Source: Proteromonas lacertae (lineage: Eukaryota). From it: 64,000 bases of DNA. Of this stretch, positions 13,738-61,251 are shown one piece after another. The notes beneath the pieces were generated by a model. The model made no database searches. It worked only from the letters and a program-made list of their open reading frames with translations, and was not told the origin of the DNA. Both the position numbers and the translations under genes were made by a program. Every line of letters starts with the position of its first letter. Positions within the stretch are counted from its first letter, which is position 1. The stretch covers positions 1 to 64,000 of the forward strand of contig NGBS01000871.1 of NCBI GenBank assembly GCA_002245135.1, in the 5' to 3' direction.

Positions 13738-14445
13738 ATGAAGAGAAAAGAAGTACCAATCGCATTTTCTATGAATATAAATCAAAAATCTGTGCTAACT
13801 AAGTGTAATACAACTGTAAATGAGGTATAGTTGCAATTTACAACGAATCTAGACATCAATGGCTGAAAGTAAGAGATGTAAAGCTGATAAAGATATTTCT
13901 GACAATTGCAATGGTACAGAGAATCTAGATACAGAATTTGATATATCAACTAAGACTATTTCTGAAATTGCTCAGTATTTATACGACAGAATGGAAGAGA
14001 GACATAAATCTCATCATAAACAAATGGAAGACGCAGTTGATGGTATGTAATAATTCTATATTTCAGACTTTTCCAACAAAATTGTTAAAATATGTGAAGA
14101 ATATTTCAACAGGTATACGCAGTTATTGGAAGAGGACAAACAAGCATATCAAAAGGATATTATCATGTAGAATCATATTATTATCATAACATTTAGTTTT
14201 CAAAACTTCATTCCTAATATACTGAGTGAAGAAGAAGAGTTATTATCGTTGAAAGAATTAGTGGAAGGTTTTGTGTCACGTATTGGAAGATGCATATCTT
14301 TTTATTATTATTATTTGAGTTATAAAATTATAATTCTTAATATGTGATTTACAGAAGAAGTATTCCTAGTGCAAATTGTCAAGATGCATCTGTACCAGAT
14401 AATCAAGATGAAACACAATCTTCCCAACAACAAGAAAATAATTAA
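13738..14445 (+). CDS. Hypothetical protein, 5 exons (three GT-AG introns and one AT-AC intron)
   Basis: Continuous frame MKRKEVPIAF...MAESKRCK...FVSRIGRC|RRSIPSAN...QQENN* after removing the introns; no family recognised. Confidence 0.6.
14294..14352 (+). other. U12-type AT-AC intron (59 nt)
   Basis: 5' ATATCTTTTTA, branch-like TTCTTAAT ~12 nt from the 3' end, ends TAC; removal is in frame (TGC|AGA). Confidence 0.72.
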
Positions 14446-27400: not shown

Positions 27401-28380
27401 GTTCATTTATTCTATTATTTGCTTCTTTATTAGCTGTATTTAAACATGGAGATGCTGATTTTACGAAAATAGCTGCTTTATCATTATCCTATGCAATAAA
27501 AGTATTAGATTCGTTAGATTGGGTAGTTAGATTAGCAAGTACAATAGAAATGAATATAGTGTCAGTGGAAAGAGTGAATGAATATATAAATATAGAAAAA
27601 GAATGTAATGGTGATGAAAAATATGAAAAGATCGAAAATTGGCCAAATAAAGGTGAAATAGATATAAACAAATTAAAAATGAGATATAGATGTGAATTAG
27701 AACCAGTATTAAAGAATATAAGTTGTCATATAGAAGGTGAAGATAAGATAGGTATAGTTGGAAGAACAGGAAGTGGTAAAAGTTCCTTGTTATTAGCTTT
27801 ATTAAGAATAGTTGATTATGAAAAAGGTGAAATAAAGATTGACAATATAAATATCAAAGAAATCCCAATTCATTATTTGAGAGAAGAAATCTCCGTAATT
27901 CCTCAAGAACCAATCTTATTTAGTGGAACAATAAGAGATAATATAGATCCATTTCGAAAATATGATGATGTTGAAATATGGAATATTTTAGAAAGTTGTC
28001 ATATAAAAGAGTTAATTAATGAAATGGGTGGATTAGAAAGTGAAGTGTTAGAAAAAGGAAGTAATTTGAGTTTAGGTCAACAGCAATTATTATGTATAGC
28101 AAGAGCAATGATAAGAAAATGTAAGATAATAGTAATGGATGAAGCAACTTCTTCAATTGATATAAAAACCGATAGTTTAATCCAAGATACAATAACGAAT
28201 CATTTCAAAGATAGAACAGTATTAACAGTTGCTCATCGAATAAATACAATCTTAGAAAGTGATAAAGTGATGGTGATGGAGAGTGGTGAATTGAAAGAAT
28301 ATGATAATCCTAAAAAGTTGGAAGAGAATGTTGATAGTTTATATCATAAGTTAGTTGAACAATACAAGAAAACTCATTGA
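24411..28380 (+). CDS. ABCC/MRP-type full ABC transporter; four introns; frameshifts at ~25736 (-1) and ~26666 (+1)
   Basis: NBD1 GSVGSGKSS, EIGEKGINLSGGQRARI, LLDD; NBD2 GRTGSGKSS, LSLGQQQ, MDEAT; FFDTTPMGRILNRFS. Confidence 0.92.
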
Positions 28381-43939: not shown

Positions 43940-44961
43940 ATGATTGAATTACTGTTAGCTATTCCTGTTATTATGGTGATTCTAGCTCAAATAATTGATA
44001 TGCTCAGCAAAACCGCTGTTAAAATTCCCAAAGAACCAGTAACTGGGATTATTGATGGAAGAGGTAAAGCGATTCAGCAACTTAATCCTTCAGAAGATAT
44101 GTATAAAATTTAAATACACATTAATAGGAGAATTATAAGCTTAGTACCTTCTCATACAGAAACATTATGTGACTTAGGATTGCAGAGTTGTGTAAAGGGA
44201 GTAACAAAATACTGTATGAAACCCAGTTCAATAAAAGAGCAAGCCGTATAATATTTGAAAATTAGTTTTATAAATTAGAGAATAATAGGTGCTCCTAAAA
44301 CGTTAAATATAAATCTGATAAAGAATCTAAATCCAACATTAATAGTAAGTGAATTAGAAGAAAATACAAAAGATCAAATTGAAGAATTGGATAAATTATT
44401 CCCAGTTTATGTTAGATATCTTTTTAAGAATAAATTGTTAAATAATACAATTTCTTTAATAATTAATTCACTGATAATATTACTATTAATGATGTAATAA
44501 AATCTATATCCAATATAAGTAAAATAACACACAGCGAAGAAAGAGGAAATGAAATAATAGAGAATATAAACAATACAATGAAAAGAATGGAAGAAATAAA
44601 GTTAACTAATAATAATAAAAAAAGTGTATTGTATTTAATATGGAAGGATCCATATATGGCTGCAGGAAGTAATACTTACATTAACTCTGTGTTAGAATTA
44701 TTGGGATTTAATAATGTTTTATCACAGAAGAGAAGATATCCAAAAATAAATAATGAAGAGATTAAAGAGCTCAATCCTGATGTGATATTACTGCCAAATG
44801 AACCATATTCGTTTGAAGAATCTGATATTGAAGAATTAAATGAATTGCTACCTAAAAGTAAGATATTTATGATAGAAGGTGAGCCATTCTGTTGGAGTGG
44901 AAGTAGATTTTATAAAGGAATTGAAATCTTTGAAAAATTACTCAAAGAAATTAGTTCATAA
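43940..44961 (+). CDS. BtuF/TroA-like helical-backbone metal receptor (cobalamin/iron-siderophore binding type) with N-terminal hydrophobic anchor; two GT-AG introns and one AT-AC intron; start may lie further upstream
   Basis: Spliced product: RIISLVPSHTETLCDLGL...GVTKYC..P...EENTKDQIEEL...PVYVSD...YLIWKDPYMAAGSNTYINSVL...RYP...LNPDVILLPNEPYSF...GEPFCWSGSR. Confidence 0.85.
44416..44471 (+). other. U12-type AT-AC intron (56 nt)
   Basis: 5' ATATCTTTTTA, branch-like TTTCTTTAAT ~11 nt from the 3' end, ends CAC; removal gives AG|T = Ser in PVYVSD; no AG acceptor near the start of the downstream exon. Confidence 0.82.
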
Positions 44962-60249: not shown

Positions 60250-61251
60250 ATGAGCAGTGATAAGGTATGTGTGCAAATCTTAATCAGTTATAGAAAGAGA
60301 CTGGTACCTTTGCCGTAAAAGCTGGATTAGCTCAAATGCTAAAAGGAGGTGTTATAATGGATGTAACTACTCCAGAACAAGCTCGTATTGCTGAAGAAGC
60401 TGGCGCAGTAGCTGTAATGGCTTTAGAGCGTATTCCCGCTGATATAAGGTATGTATTGAAGAAACACTATTAATTGAATAGAGCATCAGGAGGCGTCGCT
60501 AGAATGAGTGATCCAAAAGTCATTAAAGCTATTCAACAAGCTGTCAGCATACCAGTTATGGCAAAAGCTCGTATTGGTCACTTTATTGAAGCAAAAATCC
60601 TCGAAGCTTTAAAAATCGATTATATCGATGAATCAGAAGTATTAACAATGGCTGATGAAGAGAATCACATTGATAAAAATCAATTTACAGTTCCTTTCGT
60701 CTGTGGTTGTAGAAACATTGGTGAAGCTTTGAGAAGAGTTGCTGAAGGTGCTGCTATGTTAAGAACAAAGGGAGAAGCTGGTACTGGTAATGTTGTTGAA
60801 GCTGTAAAACATGCAAGAAAAGTACAAGCTGATATTCGAAGATTACAATCAATGGATGAAGAAGAATTATACTCCTTTGCTAGAGATGTATAATTATTAT
60901 TATTTTACATGTATTTCTACTATTAATTAATAGAATGCTGTTCCAATTGAATTAGTTCGACAAGTACATACTACAGGTCATTTACCAGTAGTTAACTTTG
61001 CTGCTGGTGGTGTAGCTACTCCAGCTGATGCTGCATTGATGATGCACTTAGGTATGGATGGTGTGTTTGTAGGATCTGGTATTTTCAAATCAGGAAATCC
61101 AGCTAAAAGAGCAAAGGCTATTGTCCAAGCTGTAACTCACTACAAAGACTACAATTTGTTAGCTGAAGTTAGTGAAGATCTTGGTGAAGCTATGGTTGGA
61201 ATTAGTGATATTCCAAATGATAAAGTCAATTTCAGAGCAAGAGGTGTATAA
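60250..61251 (+). CDS. PDX1: Pyridoxal 5'-phosphate synthase subunit, 4 exons
   Basis: [75 protein letters not shown]. Confidence 0.96.

Follow-up and report, generated by a model that had tools for sequence, protein, structure and literature searches.

The locus at positions 43940-44961 (+) of the window (the whole 64-kb stretch of DNA analyzed here) raises the question of how an AT-AC intron of the minor (U12) type could come to lie within a gene that appears to be of bacterial origin, and whether it was there before or after the gene was acquired. The predicted gene encodes a helical-backbone receptor of 301 residues in four exons on the forward strand. Exon 1 (43940-44100) encodes a hydrophobic N-terminus (residues 1-19, mean hydropathy 2.6) and is separated by a predicted major-type GT-AG intron of 27 nt (intron 1, 44101-44127) from exon 2 (44128-44245), where the match to the family NF038402 starts, while a second predicted major-type GT-AG intron, of 33 nt (intron 2, 44246-44278), precedes exon 3 (44279-44415), which places AG at -2/-1 of the AT-AC donor. 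After intron 3 (44416-44471), exon 4 (44472-44961) runs to a TAA stop and matches both PF01497 (E 2.6e-14) and NF038402 (E 3e-21).

NF038402 is the best family for this protein. Exon 4 clears the family cut-off (76 bits vs 30), exons 2 and 3 give a weak match to the start of NF038402, and the spliced model aligns to almost the whole of the bacterial profile. The sequence-only reading had called the gene BtuF-like, which holds at the level of the fold only: BtuF identity was rejected, as exon 4 alone scores 27.1 bits against a cut-off of 234 for NF002894, and a cobalamin riboswitch was found at 0/20 bacterial homologue loci. Matches of the protein in the PDB are to distant iron- or heme-binding proteins (E 4e-6 or worse), and no permease was found among the nearest neighbors of the bacterial homologues (0/36 at E 1e-40). 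The hydrophobic N-terminus (43940-44000, +) is missing from all five bacterial homologues checked. It is likely a signal or an anchor that retargets the protein for secretion or to the surface, and the product, as predicted, would likely have become a secreted or anchored binder of a metal-chelate or of cobalamin. The bacterial homologues stand alone, and the neighbors that recur at 18 of their loci are a cystathionine beta-synthase-like gene (4/18), aroA (3) and an aminopeptidase (3). In some bacterial-type members of the receptor family (P0182, P0198, P0217, P0224, P0232, and P0312) the N-terminus is fused to a small domain rich in Cys, which we take to resemble DUF1289.

Intron 3 is 56 nt long and lies in phase 2, with a GC content of 12.5% compared with 25-27% in the cores of the flanking exons. 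It opens with ATATCTTTTTA and ends with TTCAC. Its U12-like donor, ATATCTTT (44416-44423, +), matches the extended donor RTATCCTT at 7/8 positions and carries T at +6, and its U12-like branch site, TTCTTTAAT (44452-44460, +), matches TTCCTTRAC at 7/9, and likewise TTCCTTAAC, the consensus as quoted in a preprint on Physarum (bioRxiv 2020.10.12.336362). Both changes in the branch site are C-to-T, and the putative branch A (44459) lies 12 nt before the 3′ end, although a branch-like motif is by itself weak in AT-rich DNA. An in-frame TAA at 44464-44466 closes the frame of exon 4 on the upstream side, and AG dinucleotides are scarce around the junction, with one at 44427-28, the next only at 44518-19, and none in 44429-44517. 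The sequence-only reading had described this 56-nt segment with its AT and AC ends and its +6T donor, as well as the preceding TAA and the missing AG acceptor, and all of these are borne out.

Support from the protein was obtained by fixing introns 1 and 2 and scoring every open-frame cut starting in 44330-44497, whatever its ends (9,119 in all), with a hidden Markov model built from 34 bacterial homologues. Removal of 44416-44471, whose AT-AC ends restore the reading frame, ranked first of the 9,119 on protein homology alone (294.8 bits), and the restored junction aligns without a gap to the 34 homologues across their PVx(V/M/I)SD motif and the helix after it, as had been claimed for a PVxVSD-type motif. 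Among the 15 cuts within 5 bits of the best, about 2e-4 would be expected to combine a U12 donor with AC by chance. A parser blind to homology, a crude one with hand-set scores that favor the ends of major introns, also selects 44416-44471, together with a second AT-AC candidate at 14294 and a weak third U12 call at 28341. In the window as a whole, U12 motifs are not significantly enriched, with 4 strict matches compared with 1.6 expected (6.5% of 200 shuffles reach 4), two of them antisense within coding ORFs and two in the sense direction (44416 and 14294). An Rfam search of the 64-kb window gave no match, snRNAs included. Taken on its donor, branch site and excision rank, the U12-type assignment is well supported computationally, and 44416-44471 is very probably a real U12-type intron.

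The host gene is likely a transfer from bacteria to a eukaryote. Its closest homologues are bacterial and it is absent from related eukaryotes, many near matches being without names; the protein is 40-44% identical over ∼245 aa to intronless proteins, mostly from Bacteroidota, and its near homologues comprise 35 bacterial-type proteins (34-52%) and three Logan fragments (81-84%). These Logan relatives cover parts of exon 4 from internal methionines onward and are uninformative on the intron. The spliced protein gave a tblastn match at all 80 best GTDB loci, of which 78 entered a tree (73 Bacteroidota and 5 Pseudomonadota; 2 short rows were left out), and all 80 metagenome loci match it in one unbroken, bacterial-type piece, with no DNA of a eukaryotic orthologue among them. 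A search with longer proteins returned a single distant match, and the longer representatives examined (292-343 aa) are for the most part of the bacterial type and bear an N-terminal extension with Cys, unlike the hydrophobic N-terminus in the window. The gene is not contamination, since it lies on a eukaryotic contig among eukaryotic neighbors and carries two GT-AG introns. The bacterial origin that had been claimed from sequence is well supported computationally. A tree of the host protein, which had been called for, unites the window and the Logan fragments in one clade (100) within the bacterial family in both versions built, but on a long stem (2.18 in one, 0.56 in the other) and with no supported donor or sister group.

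That long stem is also what could be expected if the U12 intron were real but old, the gene having entered early or being an ancient eukaryotic one, and the intron dating from an early stramenopile ancestor or before. Minor introns are generally ancient (PMC10639083; bioRxiv 2020.10.12.336362), the transfer may be old given that no donor is supported, and most near matches (best 150 of 2,842 representatives) are without names, so a eukaryotic sister group could be hidden among them; 16 of these were read and 10 looked up, and the 2/10 with names are both of the ABC substrate-binding type. An old intron is nevertheless unlikely in view of the identity of the protein to bacterial proteins, of the lack of any named eukaryotic homologue among 38 + 1 matches or the 10 representatives looked up, and of the domain table of Lind (2025; PMC12129017), which in the part consulted counts IPR002491 once in P. 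lacertae and gives zero for Cafeteria and for all 8 Blastocystis.

Errors in the assembly could in principle have produced the appearance of an AT-AC intron, the true intron being GT-AG at 44411-44466 with a misread acceptor G, or the gene being a decayed pseudogene. Single-base frameshifts occur in otherwise intact conserved genes at ∼1190, ∼1900, ∼6340 (dynein, -), ∼16890 (bromodomain, +), ∼25760 (ABC transporter, +), and ∼58850 (+), and these six sites are likely assembly indel errors, so that at least six such errors would be at hand. All single-base edits in 44385-44524 were accordingly evaluated with a GT/GC-AG intron or with none, giving 1,685 distinct products. The best of these, in which one substitution at 44466 opens the 44411-44466 model, reaches 292.3 bits, below the unedited AT-AC model, and a read-through model (a frameshift without an intron) reaches 274.3; hence no single sequencing error gives a canonical model above the AT-AC one. 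The donor at 44411 is an atypical GTTA, which is found in none of 56 short AT-rich introns (a subset of the 94 major calls by the parser) that start with GTAT in 49/56 cases, end with TAG in 56/56 and have a median length of 32. An error would also leave a U12-like donor, a branch-like site and an AC end to have come together by chance (about 2e-4), and exon 4 is intact in relatives at 81-84% identity. Misassembly or decay is thus very unlikely to account for the locus.

U2-type AT-AC introns, which are excised by the major spliceosome, exist but are rare. For intron 3 such an assignment would accommodate the departure of the donor from consensus at +6 and the AG at the end of the exon, which is seen as well in minor-like introns, but it is highly improbable, because the extended ATATCTTT donor, a branch site at a constant 12 nt in both AT-AC candidates, and a length far over the major mode all fit a U12 intron, and the U12 introns of Blastocystis are likewise longer than its major ones. 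Least probable of all, and scarcely credible, is that the major spliceosome acts alone, with 44416-44493 coding and the third intron GT-AG at 44494-44519 (26 nt) or 44494-44534 (41 nt), the best two of seven GT-AG models open in the unedited sequence: both have an open frame as far as the stop codon and introns of 26 nt are ordinary in this window, but at 268.6 bits each they fall 26 bits below the AT-AC model (44494-44519 ranks ∼1,376 of 9,119), keep 78 nt of intron-like 12.8% GC as exon, lose 9-14 codons of homologous helix, and use AAG (44494-44519) or CAG acceptors where the short introns use TAG. The sequence-only reading had set aside a major-type intron, and its AT-AC model does score best, but it had overlooked the open 26-nt alternative.

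With the U12-type reading of 44416-44471 preferred, it can be asked how far it extends beyond this gene. The second AT-AC candidate (14294-14352, +; 59 nt) lies in an orphan gene (∼13859-14445) with two GT-AG introns, none of whose four exons gave a Pfam match. Its first 11 nt are identical to those of intron 3, as both open with ATATCTTTTTA, and its branch-like TTCTTAAT places an A 12 nt before the AC, as in intron 3. Models with retention of the segment or with GT-AG introns are also open at this site, and it is without homology support. A lineage-wide +6T donor is accordingly based on two cases, the first firm and the second soft. Chance sites are common in the window, with 23 for ATATCTTT compared with 6 for ATATCCTT, and other ATATCTTT/GTATCTTT sites (30160+, 49628-, 52717-, 34012+, 55847-, and 24127-) were rejected because they run antisense to coding ORFs, fall within a GT-AG intron, or lack a branch site and end that fit.

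The lineage that carries the intron is indicated by the neighboring genes. For a nearby OMPDC-OPRT gene the best named matches are Blastocystis (52% and 49%), and in a quick tree of 66 rows the window clade is sister to all Blastocystis (SH-aLRT 97), with long branches a caveat. Logan relatives of OMPDC-OPRT form one cluster at 95% (P0039, 12 members) and one at 64% (P0042, 4 members), so that public runs contain relatives of this lineage, some close and others more distant. The window also contains domains of dynein heavy chains as well as an Arf-family gene, which from their motifs we take to be axonemal-type dynein and Arl3, respectively, and together these suggest a flagellate. Three GT-AG introns interrupt a PDX1-like (SOR/SNZ) gene at 60250-61251 (+). 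The GC content of the window is 23-34% per 2 kb, compared with 27% published for P. lacertae. Domains of the minor spliceosome are counted in P. lacertae, namely SNRNP25 (two), PDCD7 (two), RBM41/RNPC3 (four), and 48K-like zinc fingers (four), and all of these are zero in Cafeteria, while ZCRB1 has no row in the consulted part of the domain table (PMC12129017). The organism is on this showing probably a Proteromonas-like member of the Opalinata.

If the host gene was transferred and the intron is of the U12 type, both of which are likely, then the intron must have been gained after the transfer, and intron 3 was probably acquired once a bacterial receptor gene had entered the line leading to a protist that is likely the sister of Blastocystis. 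In minor splicing, donor positions +4 to +8 are bound by U11 and later by U6atac through base pairing, and the branch site is bound in the same way by U12. In the proposed splicing of intron 3, U11 and U6atac would read ATATCTTT and U12 would read TTCTTTAAT, and the three departures from consensus, all of them C-to-T, would still pair as G-U. Drift toward AT, with the snRNAs unchanged, would then suffice to explain them, and C-to-T at +6 in particular calls for no compensating change in an snRNA, as a G-U pair would be adequate.

As for the route of gain, a new major intron may have inserted at an exon AG| junction and then been converted to the minor type by way of GT-AG and AT-AG stages. Such a conversion is somewhat favored, given the exon AG at -2/-1, the GTAT major donors, and the AT-AG minor introns that are common in Blastocystis. 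Such an AG at -2/-1 characterizes major introns and minor-like ones, and major introns have been inferred to be the source of 15-20% of the minor introns in humans (PMC11347168). In Blastocystis, 10 of 26 ATATCC introns among the matches listed end with AG (PMC5608401), and the GTAT donors of the window are one or two changes from GTATCTTT. Direct insertion of a minor intron is a lesser possibility, and a transposon is a doubtful source, with no terminal repeats seen by eye and no copies of the intron in the 64-kb window.

On a wider scale, it is tentatively suggested that the Opalinata (Proteromonas-like flagellates and Blastocystis) could be a second clade after Physarum in which minor introns are still being created, with gains dated by transferred genes in both branches, and that in the AT-rich flagellate branch the whole U12 donor consensus may have shifted to ATATCTTT. 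If so, a GTAT major donor would differ by one or two changes from a minor one, which would open the route from major to minor.

The Blastocystis branch was addressed by looking up all 29 ST1 genes scored as positive transfers in Table S6 of PMC12129017 in the Blastocystis intron table (PMC5608401), which in the parts consulted has 109 intron rows in 23 of these genes and no rows for 6. None of the 109 rows starts with ATATC, one row being covered for 400 of its 790 letters and one being mostly N, and this argues against a high rate of gain. Of eight rows longer than 45 nt, two hide, by eye, a U12-like segment of canonical form, 38 nt long, with ATATCCTT, a branch site and AC. In OAO14775_1 (PMC5608401, supplement 32), a glycosyltransferase whose transfer is dated to human Blastocystis, removal of just the 38 nt leaves 75 open codons, by eye and with the phase of the row set aside. 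In OAO16379_11 (same supplement) the segment lies in a fused gene model and the site may fall in the part that was not transferred. The long annotated GT-AG introns of these two entries are likely mis-annotations, and the hidden segments, as leads read by eye, are possible further gains after transfer. For the annotation of these protists it would mean that AT-AC introns are missed, or are swallowed in long false GT-AG introns.

Of the systems with which intron 3 can be compared, Blastocystis ST1 is the closest. In this sister lineage 346 introns are reported to be of the U12 type and the four snRNAs are all present (Gentekaki, 2017; PMC5608401), and a later study gives 253 minor introns for Blastocystis, 77% of them AT-AC, and suggests that they may be recent (Larue and Roy, 2023; PMC10639083), de novo creation of minor introns elsewhere being very scant; the consulted part of that study makes no mention of Proteromonas. 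The minor introns of ST1 are short, mostly AT-AC, and longer than its ∼30-nt major ones, as in the window, and recent gain had already been suggested from their phase distribution. Their donor, however, is ATATCC (at least 336 of the rows listed start in this way, and at least 3 with ATATCT; PMC5608401), their length is ∼38-42 nt and their branch site is nearer the 3′ end, whereas the window has +6T, 56-59 nt and a branch A at -12. Gain in Blastocystis is a suggestion, while in the window it is bounded by a host gene of bacterial origin.

Physarum polycephalum offers a precedent for both mass gain of minor introns and a +6T donor class (bioRxiv 2020.10.12.336362). Its de novo minor introns are enriched in newer genes and have the branch A at roughly -10 to -12, but Physarum has over 20,000 introns, the branch site is TTTGA and an origin from transposons with inverted repeats has been proposed, in contrast to the near-canonical branch site, low density (2 candidates per 64 kb), and lack of visible terminal repeats or copies in the window. 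The sequence-only reading had presented the minor-intron gain and the variant donor as new. The gain does follow if its two premises hold, but Physarum supplies a precedent and gain is already suspected in Blastocystis. A literature search found no paper on the introns or spliceosome of Proteromonas, or on minor introns with horizontal transfer, that covers this case, and the P. lacertae genome paper (Zahonova, 2023) may bear on its novelty.

The host protein itself resembles the bacterial TroA-like helical backbone metal receptors of NF038402 (PF01497), with exon 4 above cut-off and nearly the whole profile aligned, and differs from them in its three introns and added hydrophobic N-terminus, the bacterial copies showing neither a permease match nor a cobalamin riboswitch. 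A closer parallel in its history is rquA of the Opalinata (PMC5953543), another bacterial gene that was domesticated in Proteromonas and Blastocystis and bears spliceosomal introns there; in ST1, however, both rquA introns are GT-AG, and the consulted text of that paper does not mention U12 or minor introns. An intron inside a domain of bacterial origin cannot be ancestral, and such genes hence provide a direct test of the suggested recent gain of minor introns and allow it to be asked if minor introns arise from major ones by conversion; a new minor intron in this lineage would, if true, record an event considered to be very rare. Intron 3 belongs to an established class of introns and occurs in a clade already noted for them, and it is distinguished by its drifted donor and by the dating handle that its host gene provides, the new element being a minor-intron gain bounded by gene transfer.
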